Origin: a virus
Taxonomy: Duplodnaviria > Heunggongvirae > Uroviricota > Caudoviricetes
Length of the DNA stretch: 9,242 nucleotides
Strand: one strand, 5' to 3'
IMG/VR virus record: IMGVR_UViG_2529293240_000018
A program made the translations under genes and the position numbers. Under the pieces are notes generated by a model. That model was given only the letters and a program-made list of their open reading frames with translations. It was not told the DNA's origin and did not search any database. Numbering within the stretch: position 1 is the first letter of the stretch; every line of letters starts with the position of its first letter. Shown here in pieces: positions 1-9,242 of the stretch.

Positions 1-717
1 GTGAAAGTACTCAACGAGCTAAGGCAGTTTTATCCTCTTGATGAGCTTCTCAGGGCTGCGGAGATACCGCGCAGTACGTTTTATTACCATCTAAAGGCTC
101 TCAGCAAGCCTGACAAGTATGCGGACGTTAAAAAGCGTATTGGTGAGATTTATCACGAGAATAGAGGCCGATACGGATACCGTAGGGTAACGCTGTCTCT
201 TCATCGAGAAGGGAAACAGATTAACCATAAAGCTGTTCAGCGCCTGATGGGAACCCTCTCACTTAAAGCAGCGATTAAGGTCAAGCGATACCGCTCTTAC
301 AGAGGAGAGGTAGGGCAAACCGCCCCTAATGTTCTCCAAAGAGATTTCAAGGCTACGCGGCCAAACGAGAAGTGGGTTACCGATGTTACTGAATTTGCAG
401 TCAATGGGCGCAAGCTGTATTTGTCTCCAGTAATAGATCTCTTCAACAACGAAGTTATTTCTTACAGCCTTTCGGAAAGACCAGTGATGAACATGGTTGA
501 GAATATGCTCGATCAGGCATTCAAAAAGCTTAATCCTCACGAGCATCCTGTTCTGCACTCTGACCAGGGATGGCAGTATCGTATGAGAAGATATCAAAAT
601 ATCCTTAAAGAACATGGTATTAAACAAAGCATGTCCAGAAAAGGCAATTGTCTGGATAATGCTGTGGTGGAGTGTTTCTTTGGAACCTTAAAGTCGGAGT
701 GTTTTTATCTTGATGAG
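1..717 (+). mobile_element. IS150 (IS3 family) internal fragment; the 5' part with orfA lies upstream of the window and the 3' end is replaced by IS2
   Basis: Translation from position 1 matches my recollection of IS150 OrfB (InsK: MKVLNELRQFYPLDELLRAAEIPRSTFYYHLKAL...[30 protein letters not shown]). Homology stops exactly at 717, where the IS2 terminal repeat begins. Confidence 0.8.
1..717 (+). pseudogene. insK: IS150 transposase OrfB (InsK), truncated after codon 239 by the IS2 junction
   Basis: The 267-aa ORF in the track (1..804) is chimeric: codons 1-239 are InsK-like, and the last 28 aa ([28 protein letters not shown]) are translated from the IS2 right inverted repeat. The DDE region (HSDQGWQY ... 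[10 protein letters not shown]) is retained but the C-terminal ~44 aa are missing. Confidence 0.8.
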
Positions 718-728
718 TGGATTTGCCC

Positions 729-1634
729 CTATATTTCCAGACATCTGTTATCACTTAACCCATTACAAGCCCGCTGCCGCAGATATTCCCGTGGCGAGCG
801 ATAACCCAGCGCACTATGCGGATGCCATTCGTTATAATGCTCGAACGCCTCTGCAAGGTTCTTTGCTGCCGTTAACCCGTCTGGTTTGGGCATGATACTG
901 ATGTAGTCACGCTTTATCGTTTTCACGAAGCTCTCTGCTATTCCGTTACTCTCCGGACTCCGCACCGCCGTGTTCTTCGGTTCAAGTCCCAACATCCGGG
1001 CGAACTGGCGTGTTTCATTAGCCCGGTAGCATGAACCATTATCCGTCAGCCACTCCACTGGAGACGACGGAAGATCGTTGCCGAAGCGGCGTTCCACCGC
1101 TCCCAGCATGACGTCCTGTACTGTTTCACTGTTGAAGCCGCCGGTAGTCACCGCCCAGTGCAGTGCCTCACGATCACAGCAGTCCAGCGCGAACGTGACA
1201 CGCAGTCTCTCTCCGTTATCACAGCAGAACTCGAACCCGTCAGAGCACCATCGCTGATTGCTTTCTTTCACGGCTACTCTGCCTGTATGTGCCCGTTTCG
1301 ATGGCGGTACAGCAGGTTTTCGCTCAAGCAACAGCGCATTCTGGCGCATGATCCGGTAAACACGTTTGGCATTGATCGCAGGCATACCATCAAGTTCTGC
1401 CTGTCTGCGAAGCAGCGCCCATACCCGACGATAACCATACGTGGGCAGCTCTCCGATAACATGGTGTATACGGAGAAGCACATCCGTATCATCAGTGTGA
1501 CGACTGCGGCGGCCATCCATCCAGTCATCGGTTCGTCTGAGAATGACGTGCAACTGCGCACGCGACACCCGGAGACAACGGCTGACTAAGCTTACTCCCC
1601 ATCCCCGGGCAATAAGGGCGCGTGCGCTATCCAC
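729..1634 (-). CDS. insD: IS2 OrfB (InsD), DDE transposase catalytic part, 301 aa
   Basis: Translation (GTG start) [30 protein letters not shown]... matches IS2 InsD. It overlaps the end of orfA in the -1 frame. Confidence 0.9.
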
Positions 1635-2031: not shown

Positions 2032-2916
2032 TCAGGGGGCCAGTCTAGCAACAGTGAACGTTGTGTTGCCATTCATATCAATACCCGGCGGAGCCTTACG
2101 CCAGATGGCCGCCGCGATATCTGCCGGGCTGCCGCCGTACACGCCAACATAAAGCGAACCGGGTGTTAATGGATACTGACTGACTCCGGCTTTTTGTTCT
2201 GTTTTTTTCGGATTATGGGTGACGTAAACATCCACCACGTTTTCCACCGTGGAGAGTATTTCACCCCGGATGGCTTCCAGAATATTCCGGGCATTACGGG
2301 CAACTGAATTACGTCGGCGGTTTTCAAAGTCCGCACGGGTTTCCTCATCGCTGCCCGGCACACCGGCACTGGCGTTAGTGACACCTGACCAGCCAGGTAT
2401 TGCCTTATAAATTTTATTCAGCGTCCCCACAGGACAGCCGACGGGGCCGGTGGACAAATTCAGAAATACCGCATCAACCTGCCCTGATGCGCCGATAGTG
2501 ACGTCTGACTGACTGACATACTTATAACCGGCCTCATCCTGCGCCATACTGCCCGCCGGGATCAGCGTGCCAACCAGCCCGGTACAGGTCGCTGTTACTG
2601 TCGTACCTGTGGCCCCGCGGCGCTCCAGGAAATAAATCCTGCCTATTGCATCCTGAAAGCGACCACTGGAAAAGTCAGGGTTGATCTGGTTAACGATATA
2701 CAGCAACTGATCGTTTTTATCCGCAATAATGGCGCTTTCGCTGGATGCAAGTTGTCCCTGCGGACTGCTCAGACTGGTACTCATGGCCCCGCCCAGCGCC
2801 GCCGAAAAATCAGCAAGCCTGCCGCTCAGAATATCCGCTTCATCCGGCACATTCAGCCCGCTATCCGAAATCTGTACAGCGGGCACTGCGGTAGAAAAAG
2901 ATTTATTTTCACTCAT
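2032..2916 (-). pseudogene. Phage baseplate J-like protein (Mu gp47 / P2 gpJ-like), C-terminally truncated at the IS2 junction
   Basis: 294-aa ORF; the last 4 codons (RLAP) and the stop come from the IS2 terminus (2032..2047). Position downstream of gpV-like and gp46-like genes, with a 4-bp start/stop overlap with the upstream gene. Internal segment ETRADFENRRRNSVARNARNILEAIRGEILSTVENVVDVYVTHNP loosely resembles the gpJ core. Family call is by synteny and weak similarity. Confidence 0.5.
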
Positions 2917-3269
2917 AGCAGTACCGTAAAAATGTCATTATTGGTATCTGTAATACGCAGCACACCTGTTACTGTCCGGGTTTGATCAGCTGTGACCAGG
3001 CAGACAGCGGCGCTCACGGTCGGCAGTTTAAGTGCTTCCTGTTGCAGAGTGGCATTCACCAGTTGTGTGCCGGGCCAGTGTCCGAGGATGCGTGGCCAGT
3101 AAGGTATGCCAGCCGTTGAGTCGTACCAGCACTCCCCCAGAAAAGTACTGCACGCACACGCCACATCCTGAGCTACCGCATGGGGATTATCAGTAATGGC
3201 AAGATTTCCGGTATCATCAAGCAGGATATCCCATGTCCCGGTGTCAAGAAGAAGTGATCGTGACTGCAT
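2913..3269 (-). CDS. Phage baseplate protein, Mu gp46-like by position and size (118 aa)
   Basis: Intact ORF between the gpV-like and J-like genes in the canonical hub-V-gp46-gp47 order; no diagnostic motif recognised. Confidence 0.4.
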   Translation of the reverse strand: MQSRSLLLDTGTWDILLDDTGNLAITDNPHAVAQDVACACSTFLGECWYDSTAGIPYWPRILGHWPGTQLVNATLQQEALKLPTVSAAVCLVTADQTRTVTGVLRITDTNNDIFTVLL

Positions 3270-3281
3270 GTTTTCTCCTGT

Positions 3282-3939
3282 TTACCGGGGTCCCTGCGTG
3301 GTTGAGCCGCCGGACTCAACGCCGCCGTGAACGTGGTTTCCAAAATCAATACCCCCGATGTTCGAACCGCCGGAAAGCCTGGACTGCCCGGTAACGTCAA
3401 GCCCCTTACTGACGGCGGTATCGCCGTTCAGCGCAATTTGTGGTGAATTAACGGTGAAGCTTTTCGGCGCATTAATCACACCCTCAGGCGCGGATATCTC
3501 CACTTTCCAGGGAGATACAATCCGTATCTGGTTGTCATCAAATACCACAAACTGGACGGGATCACCGTTGAGCACGCCACCCAGCCAGATGGCATCAGCA
3601 TAATTATGGGTACGCTTTGATCCCGGCATCGCAGCCTGACGCGTGGCTTTTACCGCACTGATATCCCGATCGCAGATGGCAAGAAAACCGATATCCCCCA
3701 CATGTGGCGGCATAATCACCGCATTACCGCCCCCCTGTAGTCGCCATACGGGAATGTTATAAATCACCTCATGTTCAACCGGGGAACCGTCTGCTGCAAC
3801 GCCCATTACCATCGGTCGGGCCTCAATAAATCCCTCTTCCACGGCTACCACCCGTCCCAGAGTGATAAACGCATGACGTCCGAGAAACTGCCGCAGCATA
3901 AAGTCCTGTGCATTGATTTCGCTGTTCACGTCTGTCGGG

Positions 3940-3959
<20 letters not shown>
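3282..3959 (-). CDS. Phage baseplate assembly protein V / central spike (Mu gp45 / P2 gpV-like), 225 aa
   Basis: C-terminal glycine-rich apex motif ...GGSNIGGIDFGNHVHGGVESGGSTTQGPR resembles the P2 gpV C-terminus (..HTHKHPGDSGGTTGSP..). Overlaps the upstream gene by 20 bp, typical of a phage morphogenesis operon. Confidence 0.65.
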
Positions 3960-5616
<1,657 letters not shown>

Positions 5617-5685
5617 TGGAGCACCTGTGTTGTTCTGAGGTGAGCATATCACCTCTGTTCAGGTGGCCAAATTCAGTGTGCCACT

Positions 5686-5967
5686 TCACTTTAGCTCACC
5701 GTTTTGCAGGAGAATGTCGAGCACATCCATCTGGTCGATTTCAACCAATCTACGAAGAACATAAGCGGCATCTATACCTACCTCTTCGTTTCGCTCGGCT
5801 TTAAGCTCAGCAATGCGCTTTGCGATATTAGCTTTTATTAGGTTTTTGCATCCTTGTACGGCGGCAGAATCCTCACTGTAACCCGCCCTGATGGCTGCTT
5901 GCGTGGCATTGAGATCTTTCAGGTACTCACGGGCAAACAGCTCTTGTTTGTCGGTGAGCTTTGCCAT
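5686..5967 (-). pseudogene. Phage terminase small subunit (TerS), N-terminal 93 aa, C-terminally truncated by IS911
   Basis: MAKLTDKQELFAREYLKDLNATQAAIRAGYSEDSAAVQGCKNLIKANIAKRIAELKAERNEEVGIDAAYVLRRL... has the typical small-terminase N-terminal motif (MAKLT.KQE.F..EYL.D.NATQAAIRAGYS). The stop codon is the TGA of the IS911 terminus. A GGAG Shine-Dalgarno sits about 10 nt upstream of the ATG. Confidence 0.75.
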
Positions 5968-6098
5968 TATTTGTGCTCCGTTTATCCGTTAAAAGGGATA
6001 TCAGTTAAGTTATCCCGTGTAGGGTATAAGCCATTATCAAGCCCACCAGTAGATGGACTTTGTAATGAAGAGCCGTTGTGAAAGTAGCTCTCAGGTTG

Positions 6099-6302
6099 TC
6101 ATTTTTCCCTTTTCTGCCTACCTGCCCACTGTTTTGCAATGTACAGGCAGTCATCGAAAACTCGGCCTTTTCTGCTGGCTTGTGAACAACGGCGGTAATG
6201 CTCCACCGCCATGTCAGCGCCAGTCATAGCCGCGTTCTGGTCGTACCCAAGCTTTATTAACTCGGTTGTTACATTTTTATGTATGAAATCAATCGGAGTC
6301 AT
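6099..6302 (-). CDS. Hypothetical small phage protein, 67 aa
   Basis: Open frame MTPIDFIHKNVTTELIKLGYDQNAAMTGADMAVEHYRRCSQASRKGRVFDDCLYIAKQWAGRQKREK, co-oriented with and upstream of terS. Its start codon overlaps the stop of the upstream small ORF (ATGA). No family recognised. Confidence 0.45.
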   Translation of the reverse strand: MTPIDFIHKNVTTELIKLGYDQNAAMTGADMAVEHYRRCSQASRKGRVFDDCLYIAKQWAGRQKREK

Positions 6303-6415
6303 GCTGGTTTACCATCAGGGAAATCCCCCATGTCACATAGCTTGAACTGAATCAGATCCTTCACAAGCTGCTCAGCCTTTTTAATGGCCTTCTTCTCTTT
6401 CTTCCGACGAGTCAT
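6299..6415 (-). CDS. Small lysine-rich ORF, 38 aa (below the ORF-track cutoff), possibly 5'-truncated by IS600
   Basis: ATG at 6413-6415 (minus): MTRRKKEKKAIKKAEQLVKDLIQFKLCDMGDFPDGKPA, with its TGA overlapping the ATG of the 67-aa ORF. The frame stays open upstream into the IS600 end 10 bp away, so the true N-terminus may be lost. Confidence 0.3.
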   Translation of the reverse strand: MTRRKKEKKAIKKAEQLVKDLIQFKLCDMGDFPDGKPA

Positions 6416-6489
6416 GAGAGCGCTATGAGGTAGCCTGAGTTTAACGGACACTCCTTCCTGAAATAGAATGGCATCAGAAGGAGCTAATA

Positions 6490-6792
6490 ATGAGCAGAAA
6501 AACCCAACGTTACTCTAAAGAGTTCAAAGCCGAAGCTGTCAGAACGGTTCTTGAAAATCAACTTTCGATCAGTGAAGGCGCTTCCCGATTATCCCTTCCT
6601 GAAGGCACTTTAGGACAATGGGTTACCGCCGCAAGAAAAGGGCTCGGTACTCCTGGTTCCCGCACGGTGGCTGAACTGGAATCTGAAATTCTGCAACTGC
6701 GTAAGGCGTTAAATGAAGCTCGCCTTGAGCGAGATATATTAAAAAAAGCAACAGCGTATTTTGCACAGGAGTCGCTGAAAAATACGCGTTAA
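6490..6792 (+). CDS. IS600 OrfA (HTH/leucine-zipper regulator), 100 aa
   Basis: MSRKTQRYSKEFKAEAVRTVLENQLSISEGASRLSLPEGTLGQWVTAARKG...DILKKATAYFAQESLKNTR; intact. Confidence 0.85.
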   Translation: MSRKTQRYSKEFKAEAVRTVLENQLSISEGASRLSLPEGTLGQWVTAARKGLGTPGSRTVAELESEILQLRKALNEARLERDILKKATAYFAQESLKNTR

Positions 6793-7668
6793 TCGAACAA
6801 TGGCGACAACAATTTCCCATTGAAGCGATGTGTCAGGTATTTGGTGTATCCAGGAGCGGTTATTACAACTGGGTACAGCATGAACCCTCAGACAGAAACA
6901 AAGTGATGAGCGGCTAAAACTGGAGATTAAGGTGGCACATATCCGCACTCGCGAAACATATGGAACCCGGCGGCTCCAGACGGAGCTGGCAGAGAATGGC
7001 ATCATCGTTGGTCGTGACCGACTGGCACGTCTTCGTAAGGAGCTAAGGCTACGCTGTAAGCAGAAACGCAAGTTCAGAGCGACTACGAACCCGAACCACA
7101 ATCTGCCAGTTGCGCCAAATCTGCTGAACCAGACGTTCGCTCCTACAGCACCAAATCAGGTCTGGGTGGCGGACCAAATCAGGTCTGGGTGGCGGACCTG
7201 ACGTATGTTGCCACACAGGAGGGATGGTTGTACCTCGCTGGCATCAAAGATGTTTATACGTGCGAAATTGTCGGCTACGCCATGGGAGAGCGCATGATAA
7301 AAGAGCTGACAGGTAAAGCCCTGTTTATGGCGCTCAGGAGCCAGCGCCCACCTGCCGGGCTAATCCACCACTCTGATCGAGGTTCACAGTACTGCGCATA
7401 CGATTACCGGGTCATACAGGAGCAGTCTGGTCTGAAAACATCAATGTCGCGTAAAGGTAACTGTTACGACAACGCTCCGATGGAAAGCTTCTGGGGAACG
7501 CTGAAAAATGAGAGCCTGAGCCACTATCGTTTTAATAACCGGGATGAAGCCATCTCAGTAATACGGGAATACATTGAGATTTTCTACAATCGTCAGCGTC
7601 GTCACTCTCGTCTGGGGAATATCTCCCCGGCAGCCTTCAGGGAAAAATATCATCAGATGGCTGCTTAA
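6741..7668 (+). pseudogene. IS600 OrfB transposase, disrupted by a 1-bp deletion and a 23-bp tandem duplication
   Basis: OrfB homology runs through three frames: frame 0 from the A7 slippery run at 6741-6747 (..FPIEAMCQVFGVSRSGYYNWVQHEPSDR); frame 2 from about 6896 (KQSDERLKLEIKVAHIRTRETYG...APNQVWVAD); frame 1 after the duplication (LTYVATQEGWLYLAGIKD...HSDRGSQY...[18 protein letters not shown]...). Confidence 0.8.
7151..7196 (+). repeat. Perfect 23-bp tandem duplication (2 copies of CCAAATCAGGTCTGGGTGGCGGA) inside IS600 orfB
   Basis: Read directly: 7151-7173 and 7174-7196 are identical. It duplicates the codons for PNQVWVAD and shifts the frame. Confidence 0.9.
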
Positions 7669-7691
7669 AAAAGAACAAATGGTAGTGTCCG

Positions 7692-8307
7692 CTATTGCCA
7701 GTACACCTCATAACCGCGTTCGATCGGTTTAGGGGGAAGTGGTGCCTGAACGATGACATCACACCGGCTACAGGCCAGTTTGGGACGTATGGTTTCGATA
7801 ACTTTAAAGGCGGTATTAATGATATCCAGTTGCTCTGAGATTGTTTCCCCCATTTCTTTCAGAACACCTCCACAGGCCGGGCAACTGGTTTCAGCAGGCA
7901 GAAGGCGATGTGTCTCCCGGGGAAGTTCTGCCGGCAGCGGTTTTCGTGAAGATTTTCGTCCCGGGAATTCAGGCTTACTGGCGATCGGGTTTTCTGACGG
8001 GGGACTGGTGTCAGGTGAATCTGTGACTGACGATGCATCTTCCAGAAGATTTCTGGCTGTGTTCAGCCGGTTTTCCAGTTCCGACAGTCGTTTTTCTGCC
8101 TGTCGGATCTGATTTTCAAGCTTATGACGCTTTTTCTCTGAACTCTGGCCGAACAACATACGACGCAACCTGTCGAGTTGCGCTTTTCAGCCGTTCAATT
8201 TCCTGCTCATAGCCCGCGACCTGACAGGCATACTGTCGAAGCCGACTCTGTTGCTTACGCAACATGGCTTTAAGCAGCTCAATATCATCGGGGAGTTCAT
8301 TGTTCAT
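7692..8307 (-). pseudogene. IS66-family transposase TnpC, N-terminal ~205 codons only, with an internal frameshift
   Basis: The 61-aa (8122..8307) and 158-aa (7692..8168) ORFs are two frames of one gene: MNNELPDDIELLKAMLRKQQ...EQEIERLK | AQLDRLRRMLFGQSSEKKRHKLENQ...CPACGG.... Removing one base from the T4 run at 8184-8187 (plus) rejoins them. Homology ends at 7711; the last codons come from IS600. Confidence 0.75.
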
Positions 8308-8319
8308 TCCCTTGTTTTA

Positions 8320-8669
8320 TCACGGGTTATATCCGGATGCCAGGCCGTTCTGTCCGTTTGGGATGTTGCCACGGATCCCCTCCAGTAGCATGGATAACTG
8401 AGCTGGCGTCAGGTGCACTTCCTCCCGGGTCACCGGCCAGAGAAGCGGCCCCGTTCCAGGCGTTTGGCGAACAGGCATAACCCGTCACGATCGGCCCACA
8501 GTATTTTCACCATTTTGCCACTGCGGCCCCGGAAGACGAAGATATGCCCGGAGAACGGGTCATCTTTCAGCGTGTTCTGCACCTTCGAAGCCAGGCCATT
8601 GAAGCCACAACGCATATCTGTGATGCCAGCGATGATCCAGATTTTGGTACCGGTCGGCAGCGTTATCAT
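8320..8669 (-). pseudogene. IS66-family TnpB (orf2), apparently carrying two frame-disrupting indels
   Basis: Frame 1 gives MITLPTGTKIWIIAGITDMRCGFNGLASKVQNTLKDDPFSGHIFVFRGRSGKMVKILWADRDGLCLFAKRLERGRF. A second frame continues WPVTREEVHLTPAQLSMLLEGI. A third gives DPWQHPKRTERPGIRI. Breaks are near 8436-8446 and 8366-8380; exact positions need a reference alignment. Confidence 0.6.
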
Positions 8670-9164
8670 CGGATACCCCCTTTCATTTCGCGGATTAGCG
8701 CCCGTAACAGTTCCGGAGTGAGAGGGTCAAACAGTTTTACCACACCTGATTTTAAGATGCAGCTCGCACCGTGGGACGTTTCCGGGAGCCCCCTCAGGGC
8801 GCTCATCATGCTTGTTACGCCAGAAGGGATTTGTAACTGGTCTGGTCGGCTCCGGCGTATCAGTCAGAGCCACCGGGACAGGCATGCATTCCTGTATGTC
8901 ATCATCGCTCAGTAAGCCGTCCTCGTACTGGCTTTTCCATTTAAACAGCAGGTTATTATTGATATCGTGTTCTCTGGCGATCCGGGCAACAACAGCCCCA
9001 GGCTGTAACGCCTGCTTAGCCAGACGGACCTTAAATTCACGGCTATAGCTGGTTCGCCGTTCTTTTCGCCATGAGCCTTCTCTGATTTGAGGCTCTGTTA
9101 ATTCCTTCTTTCTGTTGGCATAAAGGATGGCGTCAAGTTGAGCGAATGAAACTGAATCGGGCAA
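8667..9164 (-). pseudogene. IS66-family TnpA (orf1), with a frameshift near the C-terminus
   Basis: 145-aa ORF (8727..9164) ...RTSYSREFKVRLAKQALQPGAVVARIAREHDINNNLLFKWKSQYEDG...CELHLKI. The expected C-terminus (GVVKLFDPLTPELLRALIREMKGGIR, stop overlapping the tnpB ATG in ATGA) is in another frame; the break is near 8741-8750. Confidence 0.6.
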
Positions 9165-9242
9165 TGGCCATGCGATACCGGATGCAAGAAATCGCTGAAA
9201 AAGCGTATGTATTGTGGAATGACTGAGACCCAGACGCTGAGC

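Follow-up and report, generated by a model that had tools for sequence, protein, structure and literature searches.

A frame-disrupted IS600 copy in the Shigella flexneri SFJ17B draft genome and the possible origin of its lesions in a collapsed repeat

The stretch of DNA analysed here (the window; 9,242 nucleotides) is identical to positions 78070-87311 of contig AFOW01000022.1 from the Shigella flexneri SFJ17B draft assembly (GCA_000217895.2), ends 2 bp before the contig end, and is a patchwork of IS elements and prophage pieces. Window positions 6426-7710 are a copy of IS600, a known insertion sequence of the IS3 family, and the orfB of this copy, as recorded, is broken by a 1-bp deletion and a perfect 23-bp tandem duplication. 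We infer that consensus error in a collapsed repeat is a somewhat more likely source of these lesions than genuine mutation.

IS600 belongs to the IS3 group of the IS3 family, measures 1264 bp and was first described in Shigella sonnei (ISfinder). It is one of the five IS families expanded across all Shigella lineages (PMC7373316). Defective copies of it are to be expected. Frameshifts or small duplications in multi-copy insertion sequences of early drafts should not be taken for biology unless reads support them.

Materials and methods

The window copy was aligned with three reference copies of IS600, each of 1264 bp, from E. coli O26:H11 11368, an S. flexneri plasmid and an S. boydii plasmid. 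Reading frames were taken from the ORF list and from six-frame translation, protein domains from Pfam, and repeats from Tandem Repeats Finder and a repeat search. The product expected from an orfB that bears the duplication and retains an intact A4 run was built (124 aa, MCQVF...PNQVWVADQIRSGWRT) and compared with known proteins.

The lesions were sought in 5,426 complete E. coli genomes and in the 72,556 plasmids of PLSDB by short-query megablast, with 40-42-mers that normal IS600 copies cannot seed. A 91-bp query over the duplication was non-discriminating, the two halves of a normal IS600 merging into one place of 100% identity.

Identity and ends of the element

The element occupies 1285 bp on the plus strand (6426-7710), against 1264 bp in the three reference copies, and its end motifs, TGAGGTAG...CACCTCA, were found in the window and in all three references. 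Identity to the references is 97.8% when gap columns are counted; over the 1264 reference positions, pairwise comparison with the O26, S. flexneri plasmid and S. boydii plasmid copies gave 3-5 differences (99.6-99.8% identity), above the 95% nucleotide identity over full length that marks an isoform of IS600. An earlier note on this DNA, made from the sequence alone, had named the element IS600, and the alignment bears this out. Matching elements are annotated by RefSeq as 'IS3-like element IS600 family transposase, programmed frameshift'.

The terminal inverted repeats, located by a repeat-pair search at 6426-6452 (left) and 7684-7710 (right), are the same as in the references: alignment columns 1-40 are invariant, and the outermost 37 bp at both ends match exactly. 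The terminal arms comprise 29 nt and are 72% complementary, and the 5'-TG...CA-3' ends of the IS3 family are present, with TGAGGTAG... at 6426 and ...CACCTCA at 7710.

The window copy resembles known IS600 copies in its ends, orfA and slippery site, and in its domain order (HTH_Tnp_1, HTH_21, rve). It differs from them in an orfB broken by -1 bp and +23 bp, from the common form in having A6 and not A7 after the stop codon, and from a simple insertion in having no 3-bp target duplication.

Reading frames as recorded

The first frame, orfA (6490-6792, plus strand, 100 aa), is intact, carries an HTH_Tnp_1 domain (Pfam, E=1.5e-20) and differs from the references by a single synonymous change, 6633 C>A. 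Together with the unaltered ends, this upholds the earlier statement that orfA and both inverted repeats are intact. The A7G slippery motif of the programmed -1 frameshift (6741-6748, plus strand), recognised from sequence and codon phase, is likewise unchanged against the references, and homology to OrfB begins in the -1 frame, in the IS3-family arrangement of orfA followed by orfB in the -1 frame at an A-rich slippery heptamer.

Beyond this point, OrfB homology is spread over three frames. The first stretch ends with ...HEPSDRNKVMSG at the stop codon 6915-6917, the second (...KQSDERLKLEIK...PNQVWVADQIRSGWRT) at 7199-7201 and the third (PNQVWVADLTYV...HQMAA*) at 7666-7668. Because one A is lost from the A4 run, translation after the normal frameshift stops at 6915-6917, and the predicted -1 frameshift product has 142 aa and is devoid of the catalytic (DDE) domain. 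The middle orfB fragment (6932-7201, plus strand, 89 aa) carries HTH_21 and is an exact match of EGM61820.1 of S. flexneri SFJ17B, encoded on one contig only; its last 8 residues, QIRSGWRT, are out of frame. The C-terminal fragment (7189-7668, plus strand, 159 aa, GTG start) holds the whole rve (DDE) core (Pfam rve, rve_3 and rve_2), is identical to EGM61821.1, which occurs in SFJ17B only, and includes the change 7298 C>T, which replaces Thr by Ile in orfB.

In a repaired OrfB the rve domain begins at residue 107 (Pfam), and the duplication falls at its N-terminal edge, on the codons for PNQVWVAD, the Asp of which we take, from IS3-family alignments, to be the first residue of the DDE triad. 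The second frameshift does not restore the frame lost by the first: -1 plus +23 gives +22, or +1 modulo 3. In place of the continuous orfB with HTH_21 and rve that characterises the IS3 family, both domains are present and split over three frames, so that the copy is defective as recorded while its family membership is unchanged. As recorded, it is predicted to be incapable of making OrfAB transposase.

The two lesions

The first frame jump had been ascribed to a missing A in the run at 6896-6898, and the alignment agrees: at column 471 the window has A3 where the references have A4 (AGAAAC vs AGAAAAC; plus strand), a 1-bp deletion that shifts orfB and, according to the translations, leads to the premature stop.

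The second jump, attributed earlier to a 23-bp tandem duplication over the PNQVWVAD codons, was recovered by the alignment, the repeat search and Tandem Repeats Finder (7150-7195, plus strand). Both units, 7150-7172 and 7173-7195, read ACCAAATCAGGTCTGGGTGGCGG, and ACC follows at 7196-7198; Tandem Repeats Finder reported one array, 7150-7198, with a period of 23, 2.1 copies, 100% matches and a score of 98. Since ACC follows the second unit, the phase of the repeat is ambiguous by 3 nt, and the coordinates 7151-7196 given in the earlier note describe the same event. The extra 23 bp are an exact copy of the adjoining reference sequence, and chance is not expected to produce a perfect tandem 23-mer in a sequence of 9.2 kb (roughly 9242 x 4^-23). 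In the reference sequence the unit starts with ACC and is followed by ACC, a 3-bp direct repeat that brackets it, and this microhomology fits the replication slippage that had been suggested as its origin. The duplication is interior to IS600, with ~725 bp of the element to its left and ~520 bp to its right.

A further homopolymer difference, an A6 run that overlaps the orfB stop codon (7667-7672, plus strand; A7 in common IS600), was considered as a homopolymer error and rejected. Its exact 42-mer, which also served as the positive control for the short-query megablast, was recovered from 221 complete E. coli genomes (252 places); the run is a natural variant and not a lesion. The earlier note had passed over this run, as it had the missing target duplication and the unrelated flanks described below.

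A 7-bp quasi-palindrome (TCAGGTC...GACCTGA, 7155-7203) spans the 3' boundary of the duplicated unit, and normal IS600 has it too; a role for it was dropped, its fold being no better than that of shuffled sequence (z = -1.2). Rfam gave no match anywhere in the window.

Occurrence of the lesions elsewhere

The 124-aa product expected from the duplication with an intact A4 run is identical to EGM61860.1 and EGM62570.1, both of SFJ17B and encoded on two other contigs (the longest of 324 kb); among 15 billion proteins, it was found in no other genome. These exact matches at two other loci imply that at least three IS600 copies of the SFJ17B assembly carry the duplication. As encoded, the duplication is thus not private to the window copy, and the earlier view of the lesions as private to one copy does not hold for it. 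Among the three duplication-bearing copies, the A3 run and the Thr>Ile change occur in the window copy only, according to the protein matches.

At the DNA level, IS600 is represented by ~9,600 places in the 5,426 complete E. coli genomes and ~2,900 in PLSDB, together ~12,500. Neither a 40-mer over the duplication junction nor a 41-mer over the A3 run had a match in these two collections, outside which the Shigella chromosomes lie. A 36-mer over the junction had no exact match in GTDB representatives, JGI metagenomes or IMG/VR, and a 39-mer over the A3 run had none in GTDB representative genomes. With Shigella chromosomes outside the DNA collections, absence elsewhere is weaker evidence than it appears.

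Proteins of other strains that start at GTG with 'MAHIRTRE...' were considered as a sign of the A3 deletion and rejected, for their DNA has A4. The GTG start is an annotation choice, made likewise in S. flexneri 2457T.

Small indels in repeats of this and other draft assemblies

Every multi-copy element of the window carries private small indels in comparison with close relatives. In IS2, one base is missing at 1985 relative to four reference copies (CTAGTA>CTGTA), outside any homopolymer. In IS911, compared with an S. flexneri plasmid copy, A7 is reduced to A6 in ATGAAAAAAAGAAAT at orfA codons 2-4 (~5607), which as recorded frameshifts orfA at its start, and there is one substitution; this homopolymer difference is of the same kind as the A3 run of IS600. 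The lambdoid fragment has T5 for T6 at 6101 (vs E. coli CFSAN029787). ISSfl3 has five private indels in 1.5 kb relative to 3-4 plasmid references (8184 +T, 8373 -C, 8420-8422 -3, 8441 -C and 8750 +T), which break tnpB and the N-terminus of the transposase into short ORFs; the fragment is either an old relic or a poor consensus at a contig end. No internal indels were found in the 2.1-kb baseplate segment (2314-4443). Across the window repeats, private indels and substitutions occur in about equal numbers. Mutation-accumulation data for E. coli show about one indel for every ten base substitutions.

In four other drafts (S. flexneri 2747-71, K-218 and K-304; S. sonnei 3226-85), every IS600 copy recovered has 1-6 small indels. 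Among their lesions are an A7>A6 change in the programmed-frameshift site, a 17-bp deletion at the same site and clusters at IS600 positions 700-800. Strain 2747-71 (AFHB01000004.1) has two inverted IS600 copies a few kb apart on one contig, and these share a 1-bp deletion at IS600 position 767. As the copies in other drafts were found via truncated proteins, ascertainment accounts for one lesion per copy near 750-800 but not for the extra lesions.

Flanks of the element

On its left, IS600 adjoins a lambdoid prophage fragment (5689-6425), 99.5% identical to E. coli CFSAN029787, with the 5' part of a terminase small subunit gene and the 3' part of a hypothetical gene (198 aa) that IS600 interrupts. 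On its right lies a fragment of ISSfl3/ISSfl4 (IS66 family; 7711-9242, minus strand), identified by blastn against plasmid copies and by NCBIfam IS66, that begins inside the transposase gene. No 3-bp target duplication was found around IS600: the left flank ends in ...GCGCTA (CTA) and the right begins with TAACCG... (TAA). The flanks are unrelated, the uninterrupted phage and ISSfl3 targets showing that neither continues the other. Unrelated flanks and the missing target duplication point either to recombination between two IS600 copies or to a contig joined through the repeat, and the IS600 of the window is accordingly read, from its junctions, as a recombinant copy or a chimeric contig join.

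A 38-aa ORF beside the junction was tried as a marker of the same insertion and rejected, as many uninterrupted prophages carry it as an ordinary phage gene. A second genome with IS600 at the same site was not found via the relatives of this ORF.

Origin of the lesions

For the 1-bp deletion an artefact is probable, the change being doubtful because it is private, lies in a homopolymer and belongs to an assembly with many such differences. For the duplication the balance tips only slightly in the same direction; it is doubted because it is known from one assembly only, is shared by several copies of a repeat that was collapsed and is internal to the element. A multi-copy and slightly polymorphic repeat assembled from short reads would yield consensus errors, the 1-bp deletion among them and probably the duplication too, and the true copy in the window would then be an ordinary, probably intact IS600. 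An artefact is supported by the absence of both alleles from the ~12,500 IS600 places, by indels that are specific to repeats and by the indel-laden IS600 copies of other drafts, and the unrelated flanks without target duplication are compatible with a contig joined through the repeat. The drafts of 2011-2012, SFJ17B included, were presumably assembled from 454 pyrosequencing reads with the Celera Assembler. The window shares with the consensus and homopolymer errors of early pyrosequencing drafts its private 1-bp indels, many of them in A or T runs and confined to multi-copy elements, and IS600 with many small indels is found in other such drafts; the difference is that a perfect 23-bp tandem duplication would need a layout or stitching mistake. 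The earlier description of an inactivated transposase stands in so far as orfB is split as recorded, but its biological reality is doubtful, given draft repeats with an abnormal load of small indels.

Other observations speak against an artefact. A perfect duplication bounded by ACC...ACC is a classical product of replication slippage and would be atypical of base-calling errors; the three copies do not reproduce a single consensus, as the other two have A4 and Thr>Ile is seen on one contig only; the A6 run proved natural, so not every homopolymer difference is an error; and the lesions of other drafts near 750-800 are partly due to ascertainment. A real duplication, possible but in our judgement rather unlikely, would go back to a single event of slipped-strand mispairing between the ACC triplets, which lie 23 bp from each other, and would represent a dead IS600 allele now at no fewer than three SFJ17B loci, spread either when IS600 copies recombined or underwent gene conversion, or when the OrfAB of intact copies transposed it in trans; the 1-bp deletion would then be a later private mutation or a sequencing error. 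Besides the microhomology and the two further SFJ17B genes that encode the duplication on other contigs without A3, this account is favoured by the intact ends, orfA and slippery site, with which the element retains what a substrate needs, by hybrid flanks that show or suggest recombination between IS600 copies, and by the many IS600 copies of S. flexneri, which could supply transposase (PMC7373316). It is weakened by the confinement of the allele to one draft assembly, by the unreliable IS consensus in SFJ17B and related drafts, and by the three further private changes (A3, 6633 and 7298) that would be needed after a supposedly recent event. IS3-family transposases, moreover, act preferentially in cis, as is known from IS911, which would make mobilisation in trans inefficient; for the window copy such mobilisation is possible in principle. 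If the duplication were real, a dead allele at three loci would imply gene conversion or mobilisation in trans and would provide a convenient natural marker of the spread of a dead IS, of modest interest to transposon specialists.

It is improbable that both lesions are real and record the private decay of one dead IS600 copy, which, once inactive, would have acquired a deletion in a homopolymer, a duplication by slippage and a missense mutation. Both lesions are exactly as described, both ORF fragments are unique to the window contig, and pseudogenes and IS remnants abound in Shigella genomes (PMC7373316); against this, the duplication is encoded at two other loci of the same assembly, and the indel/substitution ratio across the window repeats is far above what real mutation would lead one to expect. 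Still more improbable is that the duplication tags a transposase-dead IS600 lineage, copied to three or more chromosomal sites of SFJ17B by the transposase of intact copies; in a variant of this reading, IS600 activity may be damped by a DNA-binding OrfAB stump of 142 aa made from the copy. Truncated OrfAB derivatives of IS911 studied in the Chandler laboratory, OrfAB[1-149] among them, reportedly bind the inverted repeats and cannot catalyse transposition; we know of no such study for truncated OrfAB of IS600. If A3 were real, the predicted product, with the HTH and leucine-zipper portion and no DDE domain, would resemble OrfAB[1-149], from which it differs in being predicted from sequence alone. 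Non-autonomous IS derivatives (MITE-like or defective IS) likewise offer a parallel in their intact ends, dead transposase gene and an allele encoded at three loci or more, but the window element is full length and not miniature, and its multi-locus pattern may be an effect of assembly or gene conversion and not of transposition. A dead lineage, if true, would provide a naturally marked case in which a full-length IS3-family element was mobilised in trans, against the cis preference of the family. Consensus error in a collapsed repeat is the somewhat likelier reading.

Neighbouring elements

Upstream of IS600, the window contains IS2 (718-2047), phage baseplate genes (2314-4443) and IS911 (4441-5688, minus strand). 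The ORF at the start of the window (1-804, 267 aa) corresponds in the contig to a 440-aa protein with HTH_28 and rve that looks like an IS transposase, and IS2 is inserted into or beside this putative transposase ORF (1-717). The baseplate/spike module at 2314-4443 comprises Baseplate_J, a sheath initiator, a spike protein and a truncated hub, and is 99.5% identical to enteroinvasive-type E. coli chromosomes; IS911 cuts the hub gene, and a rearrangement near 2314 cuts the other side.

IS600 and IS911 are also found together on a plasmid of S. flexneri 89-141 (NZ_CP026804.1, 6740-9267), where IS911 interrupts IS600 at IS600 position ~450. The two halves of that IS600 overlap by 3 bp in window coordinates (6873-6875), as for a 3-bp target duplication, and the 12 bp to the left of the element resemble the left flank in the window, with 3 mismatches.
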